DNA of 64,000 nucleotides from Dehalococcoidia bacterium. Lineage in GTDB: Bacteria; Chloroflexota; Dehalococcoidia; Lucifugimonadales; JAGWBF01. Positions 4,503 to 50,888 of this stretch are shown piece after piece; the first letter of the stretch is position 1; the number at the start of each line of letters is the position of its first letter. The stretch lies in contig CBDBNM010000002.1 of assembly GCA_965207935.1 (NCBI GenBank), forward strand, positions 397,692 through 461,691. The letters run 5' to 3'. The position numbers and the translations under genes were made by a program. The notes below the pieces were generated by a model, which was not told where the DNA came from, ran no database searches, and saw only the letters and a list, made by a program, of their open reading frames with translations.

Positions 4503-5339
4503 TCACCCTCCCGCCTCGATAGGGGTGTCGTCCCGGTTGCCCCACTCCTTCCACGAGGCGTCGTAGTTGCATGCCCGCTCATAACCCAGGAGCTTCAACA
4601 CCAGCGTGCTGTGACCAGCACGAATGCCGGCCTGTCAGTGGGCCAGCACCTCTTTTTCGGGGGTTATCCCCTTAGCCTCCAGGAGCTCCCGCATTTCATG
4701 GGCGGGCTTGAAGGTGTGGGTCCCGTCATCCATCAGGTCCGACCACTCCAGGTGATGGGCGCCAGGGATGTGCCCGGCCCGTTGGTTGCCCCGGGTGTTC
4801 TCCCCCGTGTACTCGGCCCGGCTCCGCACATCCCAGACCACCACGTCCGGGTCCTGGTACGCCTCCTTCAGACGCTCTGCGGTGACCAACAATGAGGGAT
4901 TCGGCTTGGGAGTGAACGAAGCCCCTTCCTTCCCCCTGCTTGGGGACATGCTCAATGGCCGGCCTTCCTCCAGCCACTTCTTCCAACCGCCGTTGAGCAC
5001 CTTGACCTTGTCGTGGCCGTAGTAGTTCAACACCCACCAGAACCTTCCGGCATACAGGGACCGGGTGTGGTCGTAGGCCACCACCAGGGTATCGTCCCCG
5101 ATGCCCAGCCCTTCCATCATGTGGGCGCACTGCTCGGGCGTAACAACGTGCACCTGGCCCGTGTCCTGGTTCTTCTCGTAGTTGTCGGGCACCACGACAG
5201 CGCCGGGAATGTGGGCGCGATAGTAGGAGGCCACGGGGTCCGTATCCACGATGCAGATGCCAGGGTCTTCCAGGTGCTCGGCCAGCCACTCGGTCTCAGC
5301 CAGGTATTCAGGGTGGGCATATCCTTCTGCTGTCGCCAT
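4503..5339 (-). CDS. Two-domain rhodanese / thiosulfate-3-mercaptopyruvate sulfurtransferase with in-frame TGA at the catalytic Cys position (candidate selenocysteine); track ORF 4635..5339 is the truncated version
   Basis: The track ORF ends ...EKEVLAH at TGA (4637..4635). The same frame continues [43 protein letters not shown] to TGA at 4505..4503. H-[TGA]-QAGIRAG matches the rhodanese active-site loop C-x-x-G-x-R. The total of 278 codons matches SseA-type enzymes. Confidence 0.75.
4605..4622 (-). promoter_or_regulatory. Putative bacterial SECIS-like hairpin downstream of rhodanese TGA
   Basis: The minus-strand RNA reads UGA-N12-CGUGCUG-GUCA-CAGCACG. This is a perfect 7-bp stem whose apical loop begins with G, 19 nt from the UGA. 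The GCUGGUCACAGC apex resembles the GGUC-type apex of the E. coli fdhF SECIS (from memory). Confidence 0.5.
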
Positions 5340-25933: not shown

Positions 25934-27343
25934 ATGAAGATGCACATAGCCGGACAATGGGTGGATAAGGCTGCCAAAATGCCCGTCCTCAACCCCTACG
26001 ACGCCGTCGAGATAGACACGGTGCCCAGGGGAGACGCGGGCGATGTGGATTCGGCCATCTCCAGCGCCGTAATAGGGGCCGACATCATGGCTAAGATGCC
26101 CGCCTATGACCGCTACATGATCATCAAAAAGACCGCCGACCTGATCGCCGAGCGGGCCGAAGACCACGCCCGCATACTGAGCATGGAAGAGGGGAAGACC
26201 CTCACCGAAGCCAGGGGCGAGATCGGCAGGGCTGTGCAGACCCTCACCATGTCAGCCGAGGAAGGCAAGCGCATTCATGGCGAGACCATTCCGCTGGATG
26301 CGGCGCCGGGCACGGGCCGGGCCTTCGGTTTCACCATACGAGTGCCCTGTGGGGTGGTGGCGGCCATATGCCCCTTCAACTTCCCCCTGAACCTGGTGTG
26401 CCACAAGGTCGGACCCGCCCTGGCTGCGGGAAACGCTGTGATCATCAAGCCCGCCTCAGACACCCCCCTGTCGGCGCTGAAGCTGACCGAGGTGCTGCTG
26501 GAGGCGGGCCTGCCGCCCGAAGCGGTCCAGTGCGTCACCGGGCCGGGCGGCGAGATAGGCGATGCCCTGAGCACCGACCGGCGGGTGAGGAAGATCTCCT
26601 TCACAGGCAGCAGAGACGTCGGCGAGCGCATCTGCCAGAAGGCCGGTATCAAGAAGGTGACCATGGAACTCGGCTCCAACAGCCCCATGGTCATCATGCC
26701 CGACGCCGACCTGGACAAGGTCGCCCAAGCCACCATCGCCAGCGGCTACTCAAACGCGGGGCAGGTGTGCATCTCCACCCAGCGGGTGCTGGTGGATGCC
26801 AGGGTGTACGGAGAGTACCTGGATGTCCTCAAGCCTCAGGTGGAGCGGATGAACGTGGGGAACCCCCAGGCCCAGGGGACGCAGATGGGGCCAATGATTC
26901 GCGAGTCCGACGCCATACGAGTGGGCGACTGGATTCAGGAGGCGGTGGACTCGGGCGCCAGGGTTGTGGCCGGCGGCGACAGGGAAGGCACCCTGCACGC
27001 TCCTACGGTGGTGGCCGACGTAACTCCCGGTATGCGCATATCCCACGATGAGCTGTTCGGGCCGGCGGTGGCTGTCAGCCACTTCAAGGACATCGACGAA
27101 GCCATCACCATGGCCAACGACACCATATACGGTCTGTCAGCCGGGCTGTTCACCCAGAACCTTGAGTGGGCAATGCGATTTGCCCGGGAGGTGCATTCGG
27201 GCAACCTGATGATCAACTCCAGCCCCCAGTTCAGGGCGGACCTGATGCCCTATGGCGGGTTGAAGGACAGCGGCATGGGAAAGGAAGGCCCCTACTACGC
27301 CGTACAGGAGATGACGGAGCTCAAGATGGTCGCCTTCCACTGA
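25934..27343 (+). CDS. NAD(P)+-dependent aldehyde dehydrogenase family protein
   Basis: 469 aa with FTGS, the catalytic Glu context ELGSNSP and the catalytic Cys context AGQVCISTQRV. Confidence 0.88.
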   Translation: MKMHIAGQWVDKAAKMPVLNPYDAVEIDTVPRGDAGDVDSAISSAVIGADIMAKMPAYDRYMIIKKTADLIAERAEDHARILSMEEGKTLTEARGEIGRAVQTLTMSAEEGKRIHGETIPLDAAPGTGRAFGFTIRVPCGVVAAICPFNFPLNLVCHKVGPALAAGNAVIIKPASDTPLSALKLTEVLLEAGLPPEAVQCVTGPGGEIGDALSTDRRVRKISFTGSRDVGERICQKAGIKKVTMELGSNSPMVIMPDADLDKVAQATIASGYSNAGQVCISTQRVLVDARVYGEYLDVLKPQVERMNVGNPQAQGTQMGPMIRESDAIRVGDWIQEAVDSGARVVAGGDREGTLHAPTVVADVTPGMRISHDELFGPAVAVSHFKDIDEAITMANDTIYGLSAGLFTQNLEWAMRFAREVHSGNLMINSSPQFRADLMPYGGLKDSGMGKEGPYYAVQEMTELKMVAFH

Positions 27344-43622: not shown

Positions 43623-44723
43623 ATGAGCGTATTGAAGTTCTTTGCCAGATACCGCTGGGAACTGCTGCTGTTCCTCGGGATTCCGGCCGCCTCCTGGTTT
43701 GCAGGGCTCTTGGTGCTGGCGCTTAGCGACATTTACGATCTCTATTGGTTCAGCAACGCCGATGCTGAGTTCGTACAGTGGTGCGTCAGAATTGCTGTTT
43801 CAACGGCGCTGCTGGGCGCTTCGTATCTCTATGTGCGTCGTCAGGAGCGCTGGTTTCTGCCACTCATATGGCGCTACCTACTGGCATTTAAGGTCTTCAC
43901 AGTGCCTCTCATAGTCATCTGGGCAGTGTGGCTCTCAGATTTCGCGGTTTCAGGGATATCGGGATTGGTCTGGGCAATCGGCATATGGCTGGTCGGGGTT
44001 GCCCTGCTCTTGCCCGTCGAGCTGTGGTTTGCGCGGCAGGCATCGCGATCCAGCATTGCGCACGCGTTCTTCCTGGTGCTGGTTAGCGGGCTGGTCGCTG
44101 GAGGAGGAAACCCAGCGGAAAGCTTCTTTAGAATATGGGTAGAGGAGCTAGGCAGTAGTAGGGCTGCTGGGGGAATGGTGTTGGCTTTGGCATCATTTAC
44201 CCTCTCCATTGCCGCAGGTTTGCTTGGCGTGTGGTTGCTTGGCAACTTCGAACGTCGCGGGCCGGTGTTCCGCAGACGCACCATCTACGGGATGCTGGCC
44301 TTCGAAGGCTACCAATGGTTGCATCCTGGGTTGGTAGTGATGGCCGTTTTCGGATGGTCTGCCCTCACTCACCTTGACGAGTGGGGTCTCTGGTTGTTCT
44401 CTTTCCTCGTTCCCTTTTGGGGCATCCGTGGCGGGAATCGCCCTTACACTGGCGTTGGTGTACCTTGTGCGGGTGCGGCACCCGTTGCCGCACGGCGAGA
44501 AGGTGTAACGCGTTACGTCTCTTCCCCTAGGGAAAAGCACACAGACCGTCGGCGTTGGCCACTGAGCTGCACCTGTAGCTTCGATGGCGAGGAAGTCTTT
44601 CCGAATGCCCGCACTCCCAGCCTACTTCCTGCGGCCGAACTCCCGTTCCAGGTGGTAAGAGCTGAGGTGGATCATCGTCGGCCTGCCATGGGGGCAGGTG
44701 TGGGGGCTGTCACACTCCCTTAG
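43623..44723 (+). CDS. Hypothetical multipass membrane protein, probably frameshifted near 44413..44422 (true end likely TAA 44506..44508)
   Basis: From ATG 43623 the product is strongly hydrophobic (about 8 TM) up to ...WGLWLFSFLVPFWG. After the CCCTTTTGGGG run the listed frame turns Arg/Pro-rich and reads antisense into mutL. The +1 frame instead gives a clean TM helix, ASVAGIALTLALVYLVRVRHPLPHGEKV*. Confidence 0.55.
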   Translation: MSVLKFFARYRWELLLFLGIPAASWFAGLLVLALSDIYDLYWFSNADAEFVQWCVRIAVSTALLGASYLYVRRQERWFLPLIWRYLLAFKVFTVPLIVIWAVWLSDFAVSGISGLVWAIGIWLVGVALLLPVELWFARQASRSSIAHAFFLVLVSGLVAGGGNPAESFFRIWVEELGSSRAAGGMVLALASFTLSIAAGLLGVWLLGNFERRGPVFRRRTIYGMLAFEGYQWLHPGLVVMAVFGWSALTHLDEWGLWLFSFLVPFWGIRGGNRPYTGVGVPCAGAAPVAARREGVTRYVSSPREKHTDRRRWPLSCTCSFDGEEVFPNARTPSLLPAAELPFQVVRAEVDHRRPAMGAGVGAVTLP

Positions 44724-44751
44724 CTGCCTTACCAGACCCTCCATTTGCTCC
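44622..44751 (-). repeat. Direct repeat copy B (130 bp), the functional 3' end of mutL
   Basis: See 43144..43273. Homology ends after the shared GACCCTCCATTTGCTCC. Confidence 0.9.
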
Positions 44752-46361
44752 TCGTTCATAGCCATCCCCGCCCTTATTGCGCTGTGGCAGGCTATGGATG
44801 CTGCCATAGCATCGTTTCGCTCCCGGAGCACACCTTCGTAAGACATCATGTCCAGGACTTCTAGGAGGGCCTTGGCAGGGTCCGTAGTAGCGGCGATTCC
44901 CGGTATCCCCCGCACCAAGTAGGTGCGTTCTCCGAAAGGCTCAAGCAGGTAGCCGTAGCTCTCCAGCAGGTCCAAGTTTGCTTGAAGCAGCTCCTCCTGC
45001 TCGGGGGCCAGCTCCACGGACACCGGCTGGAGCAGGGCCTGCACCTGGGTGTCTCGCTCCGCCACTTCCCGGGATACCCGCTCATAGAGCACCCTCTCAT
45101 GGGCGGCGTGCTGATCGATGAGAAGCATGCCCTCAGGGCCCTCGGCAACCAGGTAGGTGTACTTCACCTGGCCGATGATGCGGAGGGACGACATCCCCTC
45201 CAGGGGAGTCGGATTGACGCCGACACTGGGGGCCGCCGGTTCCGTCTCGGTGTAGGGGTTCCCTCCGCCCGACCTGGGGGAAGGCCAGGACAGAATAGGG
45301 CCCGCTTGCGGGGCCGGAGGGGCCGCCGAGGGGATATTCAGCTCCGGCACGGGGGCTACCGCTACCAGGGTGCCTCGGACAGCCCTCTGGACGCAGCCAA
45401 ACACCCGGTCGTCCTGCCGGAAGCGCACCTCCCGCTTGGCCGGATGGACGTTCACATCCACCTCTCCCGGAGGGACCGAGATGTTCAGGACAGCGACGGG
45501 GTGCCGGCGCTCCGGGAGGAATCCGTGGTAGGTCTCCGACAGGGCAGCGGAGAGCAGGGGACTCTGTATCCACCGGCGGTTCAGCAGGAAGGTGATGTAG
45601 GTGCGGTTCGACTTGTGAAGGGACGGCGCGTTCACGTAGCCGGACACCTTGTACCCATCGCCCGCCCCTTCCCACACTACCTCCAACATGGAGGCGGTGG
45701 CCTCAGCCCCGTACACCGAGACCAGGGCGTCGTTCAGGGCGCCGCTGCCTCCGGTGGTAAGGACGTTGCGACCGTCCACCTGCAGGCGAAAGGCCACCTC
45801 GGGGAAAGCCAGGGCGAACCGGGATAAAAGGTCGCTGATCCTCCCGGCCTCCGCAGATGGGGACCGGAGGAACTTTCGCCTGGCGGGCAGGTTCTCGAAC
45901 AGCCTCTCCACAGTCACGGAGGTGCCGGCGGGACAACCGACGGAGCGGAGGGTCTTCTCCTCTCCCCAGTCCACCTGCACCTCCCGGCCCACATCGATGT
46001 CCTTCTCGCGGCTGACCAGCTTGACCATGGCGACCGATGCGATGCTGGGCAGTGCCTCGCCCCGGAAGCCCATCGTCATTATCCGGTCGAGGTCGTCTGA
46101 GGAGCTGATCTTGCTGGTGGCGTGGCGCTGGAAGGCCAGCGTGACCTCCTCGGCTGGAATCCCTGAACCGTTGTCCACCACCCGGAGGAGGTCTATTCCT
46201 CCGCCCTTCACCTCGATGGTTACCTGGGAAGCGCCGGCATCCAGGGAGTTTTCGACAAGCTCCTTGACCACCGACGAGGGTCGTTCTATCACCTCACCAG
46301 CGGCGATCTTGGAAGCTAGGTCCGGTTCCAGCAGATGGATCATCGCCCCATCCCCACCCAT
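44622..46361 (-). CDS. mutL: DNA mismatch repair protein MutL
   Basis: 579 aa with the GHKL ATPase N-terminus IAAGEVIERPSSVVKELVENSLDAG and RGEALPSI. The C-terminal endonuclease-type domain carries the CPHGRP motif. Confidence 0.92.
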   Translation of the reverse strand: MGGDGAMIHLLEPDLASKIAAGEVIERPSSVVKELVENSLDAGASQVTIEVKGGGIDLLRVVDNGSGIPAEEVTLAFQRHATSKISSSDDLDRIMTMGFRGEALPSIASVAMVKLVSREKDIDVGREVQVDWGEEKTLRSVGCPAGTSVTVERLFENLPARRKFLRSPSAEAGRISDLLSRFALAFPEVAFRLQVDGRNVLTTGGSGALNDALVSVYGAEATASMLEVVWEGAGDGYKVSGYVNAPSLHKSNRTYITFLLNRRWIQSPLLSAALSETYHGFLPERRHPVAVLNISVPPGEVDVNVHPAKREVRFRQDDRVFGCVQRAVRGTLVAVAPVPELNIPSAAPPAPQAGPILSWPSPRSGGGNPYTETEPAAPSVGVNPTPLEGMSSLRIIGQVKYTYLVAEGPEGMLLIDQHAAHERVLYERVSREVAERDTQVQALLQPVSVELAPEQEELLQANLDLLESYGYLLEPFGERTYLVRGIPGIAATTDPAKALLEVLDMMSYEGVLRERNDAMAASIACHSAIRAGMAMNEEQMEGLVRQLRECDSPHTCPHGRPTMIHLSSYHLEREFGRRK

Positions 46362-46397
46362 GGTTTTGGCCCGGGGATACTCTCTCCAGGCAGCCTA

Positions 46398-46841
46398 TCA
46401 GAACAGCGGGAGAGTAGTGCCTCTAGCCTTGTATTGGCGGTCTTCGGAATGGCCGTCCCTTACGTAGTCGTTGATGATGTTGTAGATGCGCTCCATCTGC
46501 CCATCATCTGGCTTCTTAAAGAAATAGGGGGGCACCCACACCCCTCCAAAGGCCGCCACTATCTCCGGGTAGTCGTCAATCACAAAGTCCGGCACGAGGG
46601 GCACTCCGAGCCCTTCCAAGCGCTCGTGGAAGCGGTCCGTCGGCTTCTCATAAACCCCGCTAACCATCGGCTCCAAGTTGTGCTCCCGCACCATCTCCCA
46701 TCGGAGACCTACCCCTGACCAGATGTAGATGCTGTGGCCATCGGCGAGCAGCTTATGAAAGGTATCCATGGTGCCGGGCCTGAGAGTGTTGTCCAAGCCC
46801 AGGAGCGTGTAGTCCACATCGAAGAATATGTTCAAAAGCAC
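46398..46841 (-). CDS. HAD-superfamily hydrolase-like small protein
   Basis: 147 aa with the N-terminal FFDVDYTL (DxD-type motif I). The size and pattern are consistent with HAD phosphatases. Confidence 0.55.
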   Translation of the reverse strand: MLLNIFFDVDYTLLGLDNTLRPGTMDTFHKLLADGHSIYIWSGVGLRWEMVREHNLEPMVSGVYEKPTDRFHERLEGLGVPLVPDFVIDDYPEIVAAFGGVWVPPYFFKKPDDGQMERIYNIINDYVRDGHSEDRQYKARGTTLPLF

Positions 46842-46934
46842 GTTCCAATCGGGAGAAAGGATTGTGCAGCTCGCCCTTCCGGCCTAGCTGACGGGGGATT
46901 GTACCAACGCGCCATAGGCTACTGCAACAGGCCT

Positions 46935-47309
46935 TTAGCCTTCATGGTCGAGCTGGAGCTCCCGGACGGCGCGCTCCAGCTCCTTCAGGTTGCTTCCAAC
47001 CAGGATGTGGCTCCCGATCCTGACCAGGGGGCGCCGAAGCAGTCTTGGCTCCTTCAACACCAGCTCCACCATCCGGTCCTCGTCCAGGTCATCGGGGTTG
47101 AGCCCCAAGGCCTTGAAGCTGGGGCTCTTCCAGGAGAAGATGTCGGACATCTTTCCGCCCTCAGCCAAGCCCCTCAGCTCGGCCTCGGACAAGGGGTCCT
47201 TGAAGAAGTCCCGCTCCACCAGCTCAGCCCCTTCCTGCGAAAGAAACTCTTTCGCTTTGCGGCAGGCCGATCAACGAGGCCACCAATAAAACTCCACTCT
47301 ACCAAGCAT
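46935..47309 (-). CDS. ArsC/Spx-family thioredoxin-fold protein with in-frame TGA at first Cys of the CxxC motif (candidate UxxC selenoprotein); track ORF 46935..47219 is the truncated version
   Basis: Own translation from ATG 47309 (GGAGGTGAAC upstream) gives MLGRVEFYWWPR-[TGA 47273..47271]-SACRKAKEFLSQEGAELVERDFFKDPLSEAELRGL...RRPLVRIG. This aligns with the Spx/ArsC N-terminal Y..P.C..CRKA..WL motif. Total length is 124 codons, typical for the family. Confidence 0.75.
47237..47255 (-). promoter_or_regulatory. Putative SECIS-like hairpin downstream of the ArsC/Spx-family TGA
   Basis: The minus-strand RNA reads UGA-N15-GCGAAAGA-GUU-UCUUUCGC. This is a perfect 8-bp stem with an apical loop starting with G, 23 nt from the UGA. 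Flanking CCU...AGG could extend the helix. Confidence 0.5.
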
Positions 47310-47337
47310 GTTCACCTCCGCTCATGGTCTGGGCTGG

Positions 47338-49989
47338 CTATTCGGATAACCGGCCCGGTCCGTTCTGATTTTCCCTGGCCTTGCTTTGCAGGTCGTAAAG
47401 CAGGTTTATGGCCTCCAGGGGGGTCATGTTCGCCACATCCAGGGCCAGGATCTGCTCGGCAACCTGGTCCTGTGCTCCAAACAGGGGTATCTGGGCTCCG
47501 CTTCCCCCATCGGCGCTCTTCTTCGCTCGACGCCTGCCATGGGAGACCTCTAAGGGACCGCCCGGCGTCTTCGAATCCGAAGCTTGGCTCTCCAGCTCCT
47601 CCAGGACCTCCCGCGCCCGGTTCACAACGGACCTGGGCAGGCCGGCCAGCTGGGCAACGTGAATACCGTAGCTCCTGTCTGCGCCCCCAGGCACAATCCG
47701 GTGCAGGAACACAACCCGCCCTTCCTCCTCAGCGACCGCCACGTTGTAGTTCCTGATGCGCGGAAGGACCCCCGCCAGCCGGGTCATCTCATGGTAGTGG
47801 GTGGCGAAGAGGGTCTTGCAGCCCAGCCTGGGGCTGTTGTGGATGTATTCCGCAGCCGCCCTGGCAATGGACAGGCCATCATAGGTGCTTGTGCCTCTTC
47901 CCACCTCGTCCAGCACAACCAGGGACCGGGGGGTAGCTTGGTTCAGGATAGCCGCAGTTTCCACCATCTCGACCATGAAGGTCGATTGCCCTGTGGCAAG
48001 ATCATCCTGCTGGCCAACCCGCGTGAATATGCGGTCCACCAAGCCGATTGAGGCTGAGTCGGCGGGCACATAGCTGCCCACCTGAGCAAGGAGAACGATC
48101 AGGGCGACCTGGCGAATGTATGTGCTCTTGCCGGCCATGTTGGGCCCTGTCAGCAGGATCATCTGAGCGTCGCTCGAAGACAGGGAACACTCGTTGGGCA
48201 CGTAGGTGCCCACCGGGACCATGTTCTCCACTACGGGATGCCGACCTCCCTTGATTTCGATGCCCTCACCTTCGTCCAGATCGGGTCTGACGTACCGCTG
48301 GCGATGAGCGACTTCGGCCAGGGAAGACAAGGCGTCGATATGGGCCAGGAAGTCGGCCAGGGAAGCTATCGCCTTGCTTTCCTGGGCTATCTGCCCGCAG
48401 ACCCTCCGGTAAAGGTCACCCTCCAGCCTTTCGATGTTTTCCCTGGCGTTCAGGATCAGGGACTCGTACTCCTTAAGCTCCGGGGTGATGTACCGCTCGC
48501 CCCCCACCAGGGTCTGGCGTCGCACATAGCTCTCGGGCACCTGGTCCAGGTTCGACTTGCTCACCTCGATGTAGTAACCGAACACCTTGTTGTAGCCAAC
48601 CTTCAGGCCCCGGATTCCCGATCGGTCCCGCTCCCGTTGCTCCAGCCCGGCGATGTACTCGTGGGCGTTCCGGGAACCGGAGCGCAGGTCGTCCAGCTCC
48701 TGGGAGAACCCGCTTGCTATCACCCTGCCCTCGCCCACCTGGCCGGAGGGCTCCGGGTCGATGGCCTGGCTGATGAGGTCGACGACCTCTTCGGGGCTGC
48801 GCACTCCCGTGAGCAGCATGCCCAGAGCGGATTCGGAGTCGTCGGAGCCTATCAGGCCGATGATAGCGGCGCCCGCTTCCAGGCTGGTCTTGAGCCCCAG
48901 GAGCTCCCGGGGGACAGCCGCGCCTGATCGTATGCGGTGCAGGACCCGCTCTATGTCGCTGACGTGGGCCAGCTGGGACATGACCCGCTCCCTGAGGTTC
49001 AGGTTGGCGTGCAGCTGGGATACGCCGTCCTGACGCTTCCGGATCTCCCCCAGGTCCAGGAGGGGCTGGCCCACCCACCGGCGCAGGAGACGCCCTCCCA
49101 TGGAGGTGCGGGTCAAATCGAGGATGGACAACAAAGAGGTCCCTGTCGCACCGCGTCCAACCTGGAACAGCTCCAGGTTGCGTCGTGTCTGCTGGTCCAG
49201 GACCATGTAGCTGTCCGTCGAGTAGGTCGCCAGGTGTGAAAGCTCGGACAGGGCGGTCTTCTGGGTGTCCTCCAGGTAGTCCAGGACCATTCCAGAAGCG
49301 ACCACTGCCGTGGGAAGTTTGTCGCAGCCGAAGGCCTCCAGGGTTGCCACCTCGTAATGCTCCATCAAACGGCGCCTGGCATCATCCAGCCGTAGCATAG
49401 AGGACGGCATCTCGGTAACTGAGCATCCATCCAGGTCAGGAGTGGGGCCAGCTCCCTCAATGGTCAGCAACTCGGCAGGGGAGAGCCGGCCCAGCTCGGA
49501 ACCAAGACCTTCGACAGGCATCTGGGTAGTGCGAAACTCGCCGGTGGATATATCCACATAGGCCAAGCCCGCCACATCATCCTGCACACACACTGCGGCC
49601 AGGTAGTTGTTGGCCTTCTGCTCCAGCAGGGAAGGTTCCACCACGGTGCCGGGGGTTACCACCCTAACCACATCCCGCTCCACCAGCCCCCTGGAGGCGG
49701 CAGGGTCGCTGAGCTGTTCGCAGATGGCGACCTTGTGGCCCTTCTTGATGAGTCGGGTCAGGTACGACTCCAGGGAATGGGCAGGTATGCCAGCCAGCGG
49801 GACCTTCATGTTCTTGCCCATGGCCTTGGAGGTCAGGACAAGGTCGAGCTCCTTCGATGCCATGCGGGCATCATCATCGAAGGTCTCGTAAAAGTCCCCC
49901 AAGCGAAAGAGGAGGAGGGAATCTGGATATCGCTGCTTGATCCGGAGGTATTGCCTACGGATCGGTGTTAACGTCTCTCCCGGAGGCAT
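47338..49989 (-). CDS. mutS: DNA mismatch repair protein MutS
   Basis: 883 aa with N-terminal TPIRRQYLRIKQRYPDSLLLFRLGDFYETFDDDA, Walker A GPNMAGKST and DEVGRGTSTYDG. Confidence 0.93.
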   Translation of the reverse strand: MPPGETLTPIRRQYLRIKQRYPDSLLLFRLGDFYETFDDDARMASKELDLVLTSKAMGKNMKVPLAGIPAHSLESYLTRLIKKGHKVAICEQLSDPAASRGLVERDVVRVVTPGTVVEPSLLEQKANNYLAAVCVQDDVAGLAYVDISTGEFRTTQMPVEGLGSELGRLSPAELLTIEGAGPTPDLDGCSVTEMPSSMLRLDDARRRLMEHYEVATLEAFGCDKLPTAVVASGMVLDYLEDTQKTALSELSHLATYSTDSYMVLDQQTRRNLELFQVGRGATGTSLLSILDLTRTSMGGRLLRRWVGQPLLDLGEIRKRQDGVSQLHANLNLRERVMSQLAHVSDIERVLHRIRSGAAVPRELLGLKTSLEAGAAIIGLIGSDDSESALGMLLTGVRSPEEVVDLISQAIDPEPSGQVGEGRVIASGFSQELDDLRSGSRNAHEYIAGLEQRERDRSGIRGLKVGYNKVFGYYIEVSKSNLDQVPESYVRRQTLVGGERYITPELKEYESLILNARENIERLEGDLYRRVCGQIAQESKAIASLADFLAHIDALSSLAEVAHRQRYVRPDLDEGEGIEIKGGRHPVVENMVPVGTYVPNECSLSSSDAQMILLTGPNMAGKSTYIRQVALIVLLAQVGSYVPADSASIGLVDRIFTRVGQQDDLATGQSTFMVEMVETAAILNQATPRSLVVLDEVGRGTSTYDGLSIARAAAEYIHNSPRLGCKTLFATHYHEMTRLAGVLPRIRNYNVAVAEEEGRVVFLHRIVPGGADRSYGIHVAQLAGLPRSVVNRAREVLEELESQASDSKTPGGPLEVSHGRRRAKKSADGGSGAQIPLFGAQDQVAEQILALDVANMTPLEAINLLYDLQSKARENQNGPGRLSE

Positions 49990-50075: not shown

Positions 50076-50888
50076 CTACTGCTTCCAGTAACGCTCTTCC
50101 TTGATGGTAAAACCTTTGGGAGAGAGCCTTTCCTTCACATCTTCGATCATACCAGGATGCCCGCAAGCATACACCATGGTGTGGTCGGGAGACAGCCCGA
50201 ACTTGTCAATATGCTGCTCGACGATGTTGTTGACCCGACCCTTCTCCCCTTCCCACCCACGATTCATGTCGTCGGATGGACGGCTGATCGTTGGCACATA
50301 GAAGATGCTATCGGGGTGCTGGCTGGTCAATCTCTCCATCTCATCTTCGTAGGTAAACTCGTTGTAGTAGCTGGCGCCCTGCAAAACGTAGAACCTGTGG
50401 CCTTCGCCGCCATTGTGCAGGTAGCTGCGAATGGTGCTGATGAAAGGAGCGATACCTGTCACCGTCGCCACCATCAGATGGTCCCGGTACTTCTGGTCCA
50501 TGGTGAATACGCCCTTGGCCCTTGGCCTGATGCTCATGCAGTCCCCCACCTTGAGGTCCCACATGAGAGGGGTGAGGGCGCCGTCGGGAGGGGGCACCAG
50601 CTCTACGAAGATCTCCAGGTCCGGCTCGTGGGGGGCCGACGCAATGGAGTAGGCCCGTTCTATGGAGTCGAGGCCCAAGGTGCAATACTGGCCCGGCTTG
50701 AATGAAAACTCCACTTCCGGTTGCAGATGGATAACCATCAGGTCGTCGGTGACGTCCCTTCGGGACACCAGCTTGGTCTTGGGTAGGTTGGCTATGGTCT
50801 TACGTAGCTGCTGCTCCCTGTCTATGGTTGCCTGCTCCGCCCGATTCATACACATCCCTCTATCGTCTATTGGGTATCTATTGGGCAT
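50076..50888 (-). CDS. Ferredoxin-NADP+ reductase-like FAD/NAD(P)-binding oxidoreductase
   Basis: The FAD-binding RAYSIAS motif and the NAD-binding TVTGIAPFIS and VYACGHPGM motifs are present. The probable start is an internal Met (MNRAEQ...). Confidence 0.7.
   Translation of the reverse strand: MPNRYPIDDRGMCMNRAEQATIDREQQLRKTIANLPKTKLVSRRDVTDDLMVIHLQPEVEFSFKPGQYCTLGLDSIERAYSIASAPHEPDLEIFVELVPPPDGALTPLMWDLKVGDCMSIRPRAKGVFTMDQKYRDHLMVATVTGIAPFISTIRSYLHNGGEGHRFYVLQGASYYNEFTYEDEMERLTSQHPDSIFYVPTISRPSDDMNRGWEGEKGRVNNIVEQHIDKFGLSPDHTMVYACGHPGMIEDVKERLSPKGFTIKEERYWKQ

Follow-up and report, generated by a model that had tools for sequence, protein, structure and literature searches.

A probable UxxC selenoprotein of the ArsC/Spx fold in Dehalococcoidia, with a SECIS-type hairpin inside its coding sequence

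Introduction

A TGA codon that stands in frame where a protein of the ArsC/Spx family would carry the first cysteine of its CxxC motif raises the question of whether that codon ends translation, as the listed open reading frame (ORF) implies, or is read as selenocysteine (Sec). The locus in question belongs to a 64-kb stretch of Dehalococcoidia DNA, referred to here as the window, by which we mean the whole of the sequence that was analyzed. A sequence-only reading had proposed a gene for a UxxC protein at this place, pointing to a Shine-Dalgarno sequence with an ATG, an open frame upstream of the TGA, the TGA itself, and a hairpin beyond it. All of these elements are present, and the listed ORF, which starts at a GTG downstream of the TGA, does lack the N terminus of the family.

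ArsC-like selenoproteins were reported in 2006 from Desulfotalea and Desulfuromonas (PMC1794560). The Global Ocean Sampling (GOS) selenoproteome of Zhang and Gladyshev (2008) contains an “Arsenate reductase 2 (cd03032, UxxC)” with 42 Sec and 238 Cys forms (PMC2398784), and prokaryotic selenoproteome reviews of 2022 and 2026 carry an entry for an “Arsenate reductase-like protein, UxxC,” linked to the model NF041106 (PMC9312934, PMC13188914). In the literature searched, we found no Spx-type selenoprotein described as such and no paper treating SAR202 and selenoproteins together.

The evidence presented here makes it very likely that the locus encodes a 124-residue ArsC/Spx-fold selenoprotein in which UGA codon 13 would be decoded as Sec by means of a SECIS element; a redox role for U13 and C16 is proposed.

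Results

Gene and reading frame

The features of the locus and its surroundings are collected in Table 1. In minus-strand translation, the frame reads MLGRVEFYWWPR, then TGA, then SACRKAKEFLSQEGAELVERDFF and onward, and the resulting motif is U13-S-A-C16. The N terminus of the protein is fixed by an in-frame stop lying five codons upstream of the ATG, and the N-terminal residues MLGRVEFYWW are common to the closest orthologs (L001 to L005). The listed 94-aa ORF had no entry in the contig collection searched.

Table 1. Positions of the UxxC gene, its signals, and other features of the window
Feature	Position	Strand	Remarks
Full predicted selenoprotein CDS	46935..47309	minus	124 codons and TAA stop; ATG 47309..47307; predicted Sec is codon 13
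Shine-Dalgarno-like GGAGG	47315..47319	minus	Read from the sequence; spacer of 5 nt to the ATG
TGA, read as Sec codon 13	47271..47273	minus	First position of UxxC, in frame
TGC, Cys16	47262..47264	minus	Putative resolving Cys of UxxC
Bacterial SECIS-type hairpin, within the CDS	47237..47255	minus	5' arm 47255..47248; loop GUU 47247..47245; 3' arm 47244..47237
TAA stop of the UxxC gene	46937..46935	minus	
Listed ORF, GTG start, 94 aa	46935..47219	minus	N-truncated artifact of taking the TGA as a stop
mutS	47338..49989	minus	Pfam MutS domains I to V; directly upstream, gap of 28 nt to the ATG
Conserved 147-aa ORF	46398..46841	minus	Directly downstream; DxDxT-like motif only
mutL	44622..46361	minus	Pfam MutL_C, DNA_mis_repair, HATPase_c_3; last gene of the string
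Tandem rhodanese gene	ATG 5339, stop 4505..4503	minus	TGA 4637..4635 at the catalytic Cys of the C-x-x-G-x-R loop

Conservation of the TGA and the Sec/Cys pattern in relatives

With each GTDB species represented by a single genome, a scan returned 384 relatives, and the loci of the best 80 were fetched; nearly all of these came from Dehalococcoidia, Chloroflexota, or SAR202 metagenome-assembled genomes (MAGs), with a few from Smithella. An ortholog in OY760073.1 is 94% identical. The homologous codon was TGA in 80 of 80 fetched loci. Contigs from four independent run assemblies matched positions 46900..47400 of the window with zero differences, and the two results together exclude a sequencing error at the TGA, one of the outcomes that the sequence-only reading had named as fatal to its proposal.

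Another such outcome, that the region upstream of GTG 47219 might prove noncoding in orthologs, is contradicted by its pattern of substitution. Across the Sec-form relatives, entropy at codon positions 1, 2, and 3 was 0.73, 0.67, and 1.27 in the eight codons before the TGA and 0.53, 0.47, and 1.16 in the 24 codons after it. The upstream codons are coding sequence, varying mainly at third positions; counted from the TGA, Trp never varies at codon -3 and Tyr hardly ever at codon -5.

Protein searches with the window product were run with Cys substituted for the UGA (124 aa). They returned mostly homologs of 88 to 99 aa, covering 70 to 76% of the query, together with full-length ones of 114 to 118 aa. 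Six full-length homologs had CxxC at the Sec position (for example, FYCWVRCTTCRKAKEFLSQ), as expected from the Sec/Cys pairing predicted for this codon, and in the DNA of these true Cys homologs the codon 13 position was TGT or TGC. When 1.84 billion representatives were searched exhaustively with a profile, 207 proteins reached an E value of 1e-10 or better; among the best 150 of them, at least 71 began just past the Sec position and at least 12 were full length with CxxC.

Twenty-three database homologs had W at the Sec position. The one that was checked at the DNA level (L087) has TGA there, and we therefore read the W entries as Sec codons translated under a Trp-reading code. The W-reading frame of L087 overruns the usual C terminus of the family through a second TGA, which marks its W as a gene-calling artifact. 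The shortened database homologs begin at differing, nonhomologous positions (MERDFF, MLSQKG, MQAGLE, and MTCRKA), and in every genome examined the gene call was either shortened to 88 to 99 aa or had the UGA translated as Trp. As judged from these alignments, the relatives show the classic Sec/Cys pattern, with predicted Sec forms in the majority.

A hairpin with the properties of a bacterial SECIS element

The hairpin GCGAAAGA-GUU-UCUUUCGC begins 15 nt past the UGA and has a folding energy, taken alone, of -8.6 kcal/mol. A published model of the bacterial SECIS element (bSECIS) sets four criteria, calling for an apical loop of 3 to 9 nt with G in the first two loop positions, a stem of 4 to 16 bp, a UGA-loop spacing of 16 to 37 nt, and a minimum free energy of -7.5 kcal/mol or lower (PMC13188914). 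The window hairpin lies within all of these ranges, with its loop GUU (G and then U at the start), a stem of 8 bp, a UGA-loop spacing of 23 nt, and the energy just given. Across the family, G was found in the first two loop positions in 81 of 81 sequences, and 80 of 81 had energies of -7.5 kcal/mol or lower. When a 71-nt segment of the window sequence was folded, the result was no better than that for shuffled sequences (z = -0.32) and was indistinguishable from the GC-rich background, so that the significance of the hairpin rests on comparative data.

The comparison used a gap-free alignment of 78 distinct sequences, reaching from 6 nt upstream of the UGA to 57 nt downstream. Columns 25-32 and 36-43 of the alignment form the stem, which was paired in 91.8% of cells, compared with 36 to 70% in slid controls in which the 3' partner was moved by 1 to 3 columns. 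Changes on both sides were seen at four of the eight stem pairs (CG/UA, 16 times; GC/AU, 32 times; GC/AU, 11 times; and AU/CG, 11 times). The covariation score of the stem was 0.358, a value reached by 0 of 500 shuffles, the slid controls scoring at most 0.149, and RNAalifold, run independently, returned the same stem in its inner six pairs. A lower SECIS stem (alignment columns 17-19/49-51) was 81% paired but with almost no covariation, and it is not claimed here. An Rfam scan of the window gave no match; no Rfam model matched at this place, and the scan has no bearing on the hairpin.

The stem coincides with the conserved peptide A/V-K/R-E-F/L-L-S/L-Q, and part of its conservation is therefore driven by the protein. 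The covariation likewise couples amino acids in part, pairing Ala (GCG) with Ser (UCG), Ala (GCA) with Leu (UUG), and Val (GUA) with Leu (UUA). The loop G is invariant even though it is the synonymous third base of a Glu codon.

The DNA of all six Cys-form homologs served as a control when compared with the 81 Sec-form genes. The hairpin had an energy of -5.3 kcal/mol or lower in 81 of 81 Sec forms (mean, -8.5 kcal/mol), whereas among the Cys forms it was lost in two (-1.7 and -1.8 kcal/mol) and intact in four. Decay in 2 of 6 Cys forms versus 0 of 81 Sec forms corresponds to a Fisher P value of about 0.004 and, occurring only where the UGA is gone, fits a SECIS element released from constraint. 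The contrast between Sec and Cys forms in the maintenance of the hairpin is partial. The four intact Cys-form hairpins are best read as recent Sec-to-Cys conversions, with a small chance that the stem is kept for another role. The hairpin had been proposed as an 8-bp stem with a loop starting in G, 15 nt downstream of the UGA; this description is accurate, and in the family the element behaves as a SECIS.

Genetic code and Sec machinery

TGA ends 14 of the 39 long ORFs in the window, including that of an aldehyde dehydrogenase at its expected C terminus, from which it follows that the code is not reassigned. Searches by tblastn with E. coli SelA, SelB, and SelD found no selA, selB, or selD gene in the 64-kb window or in the fetched loci; a tRNA scan found no tRNA gene in the window and, in 60 loci, only tRNA-Lys and tRNA-Pro and no tRNA-Sec. 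The database BSepDB, which takes in a species only if it has two or more of SelA, SelB, and SelD, places Dehalococcoidia bacterium 10f4566d-ab44-49ae-b774-fc9f760c6436 in its top-ten table, with 46 selenoprotein genes (PMC13326102). The same bacterium is the source of locus L046, one of the TGA orthologs, an indirect indication that the genome of the window, too, may encode Sec machinery.

A second in-frame TGA at a redox Cys had been noted in the window and was found again, at the catalytic Cys position of the tandem rhodanese (Table 1). A generic scan for TGA-interrupted genes was too noisy at the GC content of the window. A further rhodanese-like TGA candidate, at 27341, was rejected, being the normal stop of the aldehyde dehydrogenase.

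Fold, active site, and family

The Pfam family ArsC (PF03960) matches residues 8 to 112 of the window protein (E = 4e-16; 59.5 bits, against a gathering threshold of 24), and Spx structures match residues 5 to 115 (E = 1e-13); in this match, Cys10 of the Spx motif C10-x-x-C13 falls exactly on the TGA. Codon 13 also aligns to C12 of E. coli ArsC. The placement of the protein in the ArsC/Spx family, with its TGA at the first Cys of CxxC, is thus upheld.

The true Cys homolog nearest to the window protein, P0007, is 54% identical to it, and a confident AlphaFold2 (AF2) model of P0007 (pLDDT, 89.9) puts C13 in the loop past strand beta1, one residue ahead of helix alpha1 (residues 14 to 24). With this model, Foldseek returned Spx, YffB, and ArsC-family structures at TM scores of 0.8 to 0.87; as these match equally well, the fold assigns the protein to a superfamily and to no subfamily within it. 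The conserved domain cd03032 is the ArsC_Spx subfamily of CDD, the one that the window protein resembles most.

Cys16 is invariant in 80 distinct sequences (81 Sec-form genes, including that of the window). In direct alignment, this second motif Cys is shared only with Spx (C13), the corresponding residues being Ser in E. coli ArsC and Ile in YffB, and basic residues are kept at the positions of Spx R60 and R91/R92, as K/R61 and R92/R93. In sequence alignment with ArsC, only the R94 equivalent (R93) of the Arg triad R60/R94/R107 is kept, with S59 and S106 at the other two positions, and the protein is therefore no ArsC-type arsenate reductase. That assignment was rejected also on the score for the arsenate reductase model TIGR00014 (43.8 bits, under the cutoff of 106).

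Every specific NCBIfam model scored the window protein below its curated cutoff. The Spx/MgsR model TIGR01617 came closest, with 64 bits for the window protein and 57.5 to 75.0 for relatives, all slightly below the cutoff of 75.05; the Spx model NF002459 gave 58.7 bits against a cutoff of 123. The ArsC family (seleno)protein model NF041106 gave 33 bits for the window protein and 29 to 40 for seven diverse relatives, so far under its cutoff of 85 that the clade must be a subfamily different from the one curated.

Two regions of Spx bear on the comparison with that regulator. Its C-terminal tail, about residues 116 to 131, serves ClpXP/YjbH-dependent turnover, and the region of Gly52 binds the C-terminal domain of the RNA polymerase alpha subunit. 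Homology to Spx stops at residue 115, after which the window protein adds 9 unrelated residues; most relatives are shorter. The column at Spx G52 holds G in the window protein and mostly K, R, or H in relatives, an assignment that depends on the alignment because of an indel at that point, where a conserved G also stands one column before.

Gene neighborhood

The UxxC gene lies in a string with mutS, a conserved 147-aa ORF, and mutL. Among the 80 related loci, mutS adjoined in 58, the 147-aa ORF in 57, and mutL in 56; the string is kept down to about 50% protein identity, and the 147-aa ORF is 58 to 98% identical across the loci where it is adjacent. The sequence-only reading had placed the gene in a mutS-mutL string next to a HAD-like gene. 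Pfam matches bear out the string, and the neighbor is where it was said to be, but its HAD identity comes down to a DxDxT-like motif, the 147-aa ORF having no match in Pfam or the PDB. Between the genes of the mutS-mutL string, a search for promoter- and terminator-like sites gave nothing above background, which fits, as weak evidence, a single operon. In other lineages, Cys-form homologs adjoin genes for Fur, rubredoxin, SOD, catalase-peroxidase, and a DsbH-type thioredoxin, neighbors that point to oxidative-stress chemistry.

Discussion

The comparative evidence shows that UGA codon 13 of this gene is, as far as sequences can tell, read as selenocysteine. In the mechanism that we propose, the stem-loop of 7 to 8 bp located 15 nt past the UGA would act as a bacterial SECIS element, recruiting SelB that carries Sec-tRNA(Sec) to the ribosome, where the UGA would be decoded and termination avoided. 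The motif U13-S-A-C16 would occupy the beta1-alpha1 loop, the site of the redox-active C10-x-x-C13 of Spx. There, U13 would make the nucleophilic attack with its selenolate, and C16 would then resolve the intermediate, giving a selenenylsulfide (Se-S) that would be returned to the reduced state by a thioredoxin or glutaredoxin system. This chemistry of U13 and C16 is inferred from the fold and by analogy with known CxxC and UxxC thioredoxin-fold proteins. The most likely role, on the same kind of reasoning, lies in oxidative-stress defense or thiol homeostasis, with the protein serving as a small enzyme or switch of redox type.

Three other accounts of the TGA have to be weighed against Sec. 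Were it a true stop, the product would be the 94-aa protein from GTG 47219, with the 12 upstream codons left as a leader or tiny upstream ORF; the ORF is listed in this way, and gene callers give most homologs as entries of 88 to 99 aa. We consider this highly improbable, because the 12 codons evolve as coding sequence with their invariant Trp and near-invariant Tyr, so short a protein would be missing strand beta1 and some of helix alpha1 along with the CxxC motif, the start sites of the shortened calls are nonhomologous between genomes, and full-length CxxC homologs exist. Decoding of the UGA by some other means, whether as Trp or Gly under a reassigned code or as Cys or Trp through hairpin-stimulated near-cognate suppression, would agree with the more than 20 database entries that give W at this position and with the lack of sel genes and tRNA-Sec among the genes of the window. 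It must account, however, for the ordinary use of TGA as a stop in the window, at the aldehyde dehydrogenase among others, for the second TGA crossed by the W frame of L087, for homologs having Cys, the usual partner of Sec, at that position, for a hairpin that fits the SelB-type SECIS model, and for a related genome catalogued as Sec utilizing, and it appears very improbable to us. The TGA might, finally, mark a pseudogene, or a mistake of sequencing or assembly, where a Cys codon once stood. In any one sequence, a lone change from TGY to TGA would be enough for such a picture, but the same TGA in all 80 related loci, the identity of four independent assemblies, and purifying selection on both sides of the codon reduce the probability of this explanation to almost nothing.

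If the TGA is read as Sec, the function of the protein may still differ from the one favored above. An Spx-type regulator, binding to the C-terminal domain of the RNA polymerase alpha subunit and using its selenol/thiol pair as an oxidant switch, with no enzymatic activity, is suggested by the best matches in both sequence and structure being Spx (E = 1e-13; TM, 0.83), by TIGR01617 being the best NCBIfam model, with relatives reaching 75.0 bits at a cutoff of 75.05, by the second motif Cys that is common only to Spx, and by the retained counterparts of R60 and R91/R92. On the other side stand the score of the window protein below the TIGR01617 cutoff, an end at Spx residue 115 that leaves out the C-terminal tail of some 16 residues, the K, R, or H that most of the family has in the (alignment-dependent) G52 column, and the equally good match of ArsC-family and YffB structures. 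To our knowledge, Sec occurs in catalytic redox sites and not in the sensors of transcription factors, and we know of Spx regulators characterized only in Firmicutes. We regard such a regulator as less likely than a redox enzyme or switch of the kind proposed, and on balance as unlikely, while giving it appreciable weight. A good deal more doubtful is a partnership with DNA mismatch repair, hinted at by the conserved mutS-mutL string, in which the protein would serve as an Spx-like Sec redox sensor or as a dedicated reductase; if it existed, the link might couple redox or selenium status to the activity or expression of MutS and MutL, and this would be the first Sec-dependent Spx-type regulatory switch and the first outside Firmicutes.

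The proposed redox selenoprotein has several relatives among described systems. With the GOS “Arsenate reductase 2,” compared by description only, it shares an ArsC-superfamily domain, Sec in the first position of UxxC, many Cys homologs, and a marine and metagenomic origin; the GOS study contains no Dehalococcoidia assignment, SECIS covariation analysis, or gene context (PMC2398784). The proteins of NF041106 resemble it in superfamily, in the UxxC motif, and in having a function that is only predicted, but differ in that the clade scores 29 to 40 bits against that model's cutoff of 85. Spx of B. subtilis (PDB 1Z3E, 3GFK, and 6GHB) is similar in fold (TM of about 0.83), about 30% identical throughout the domain, and alike in the place of its redox motif (C10xxC13 for U13xxC16) and in basic residues that match at R60 and R91/R92; unlike Spx, the present protein would have Sec for the first Cys, has no C-terminal tail, falls under the TIGR01617 cutoff, and is hosted by Chloroflexota rather than Firmicutes. 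The glutaredoxin-coupled ArsC of E. coli (PDB 1I9D) is equally close in fold (TM of about 0.84), with Cys12 equivalent to U13 and R94 to R93, but it differs in having no second Cys, in R60 and R107, which are without counterparts in the window protein, and in the TIGR00014 score of 43.8 bits against 106.

UxxC ArsC-like selenoproteins have been a known kind since 2008, their function is still predicted, and no new class of system is described here. What the sequences do indicate is that the Dehalococcoidia-centered clade forms a subfamily of its own, one whose members are systematically misannotated. The value of the locus lies in annotation and in a textbook-quality case of SECIS covariation, rather than in new biology. 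As a natural example of a SECIS element inside a conserved peptide, it has Ala/Ser and Val/Leu pairs that track RNA base pairing, and hairpin decay is visible after Sec-to-Cys conversion. The large selenoproteomes of marine and sponge-associated Dehalococcoidia gain a well-supported case with it, and the curated NCBI selenoprotein model (NF041106) misses the clade to which the protein belongs. Through the miscalling of this gene, a conserved redox protein stands in public proteomes of the Dehalococcoidia/SAR202 type without its active site.

Conserved gene order between mutS and mutL

The gene for the UxxC Spx/ArsC-fold selenoprotein belongs to a four-gene string, mutS, selenoprotein, 147-aa open reading frame (ORF) and mutL, that is kept in about 56 to 58 of 80 loci from relatives and persists down to a selenoprotein identity of roughly 50%. 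The Smithella loci lack the string, as do some of those from Dehalococcoidia. The 147-aa ORF has no match in Pfam or PDB, its sole motif being a DxDxT-like "FFDVDYTLL"; it is present at 58 to 98% identity in 57 of 80 Dehalococcoidia loci, and the segments of MutS and MutL on either side of it are less conserved.

Features of the window and Cys-form homologs in other loci
Feature	Position	Strand	Remark
Tandem-domain rhodanese	4503..5339	minus	Pfam PF00581, two domains
mutS / UxxC selenoprotein / 147-aa ORF / mutL	44622..49989	all one strand	also found among loci L001-L077
147-aa ORF	46398..46841	minus	between selenoprotein gene and mutL
NAD-binding oxidoreductase	50076..50888	minus	adjoins molybdopterin oxidoreductase
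Molybdopterin oxidoreductase, 950 aa	50917..53769	minus	N-terminal 2Fe-2S and 4Fe-4S domains
Cys form	L084:2051-2401		hairpin intact
Cys form	L086:3001-3351		hairpin intact
Cys form	L090:421-771		hairpin intact
Cys form	L091:3001-3351		hairpin intact
Cys form	L081:3001-3351		hairpin decayed
Cys form	L092:522-866		hairpin decayed

Trp and Cys at the selenocysteine position

Trp fills the Sec position in 23 database entries of the family ("KWNTCRKA"; P0008, P0012, P0013, P0014, P0016-P0018, P0020-P0023, P0025, P0027, P0029-P0033, P0035-P0037, P0039, and P0044). Evidently, the pipelines that deposited them used a code in which TGA is read as Trp. In the DNA of one locus (L087:433-816) the codon at this position is TGA, and the protein call there also reads through a second TGA, which is the true stop, and so acquires a spurious extension at its C-terminus.

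Cys-form homologs have TGC or TGT at the Sec position, and their hairpin is either a perfect copy of the SECIS or lost. The intact hairpins ("fossil SECIS") fold at -8.3 to -8.6 kcal/mol, and the decayed ones of L081 and L092 at -1.7 and -1.8 kcal/mol. Oxidative-stress neighborhoods surround the Cys-form homologs of L081, L084, and L086: upstream of the L084 gene lie Fur, rubredoxin, and Fe/Mn-SOD, and downstream of it a PNPOx-like gene and one of the Staygreen family; catalase-peroxidase and heliorhodopsin flank the gene in L086, and a TehB-like methyltransferase and a DsbH-type thioredoxin flank it in L081.

Other genes in the window

In the rhodanese, an in-frame TGA (4637..4635) stands where the active-site loop has its catalytic Cys, and the loop of a hairpin, CAGCAC-GCUG-GUGUUG, starts 29 nt past the UGA; this region folds no better than shuffled sequences (z = -0.75). 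"Sulfurtransferase COG2897" is listed as a selenoprotein in the Global Ocean Sampling selenoproteome (Zhang and Gladyshev, 2008; PMC2398784). The frame of the molybdopterin oxidoreductase, which is formate dehydrogenase alpha or NuoG-like, runs without interruption, and the protein is therefore without Sec.

Probable habitat of the source lineage

When runs X1-X23 were compared, positions 46900..47400 were matched exactly in four runs from one sample. Partial k-mer matches came mostly from sponge metagenomes, with some from marine and coral-reef samples, and this predominance of sponge metagenomes suggests that the source is a sponge-associated lineage of Dehalococcoidia.
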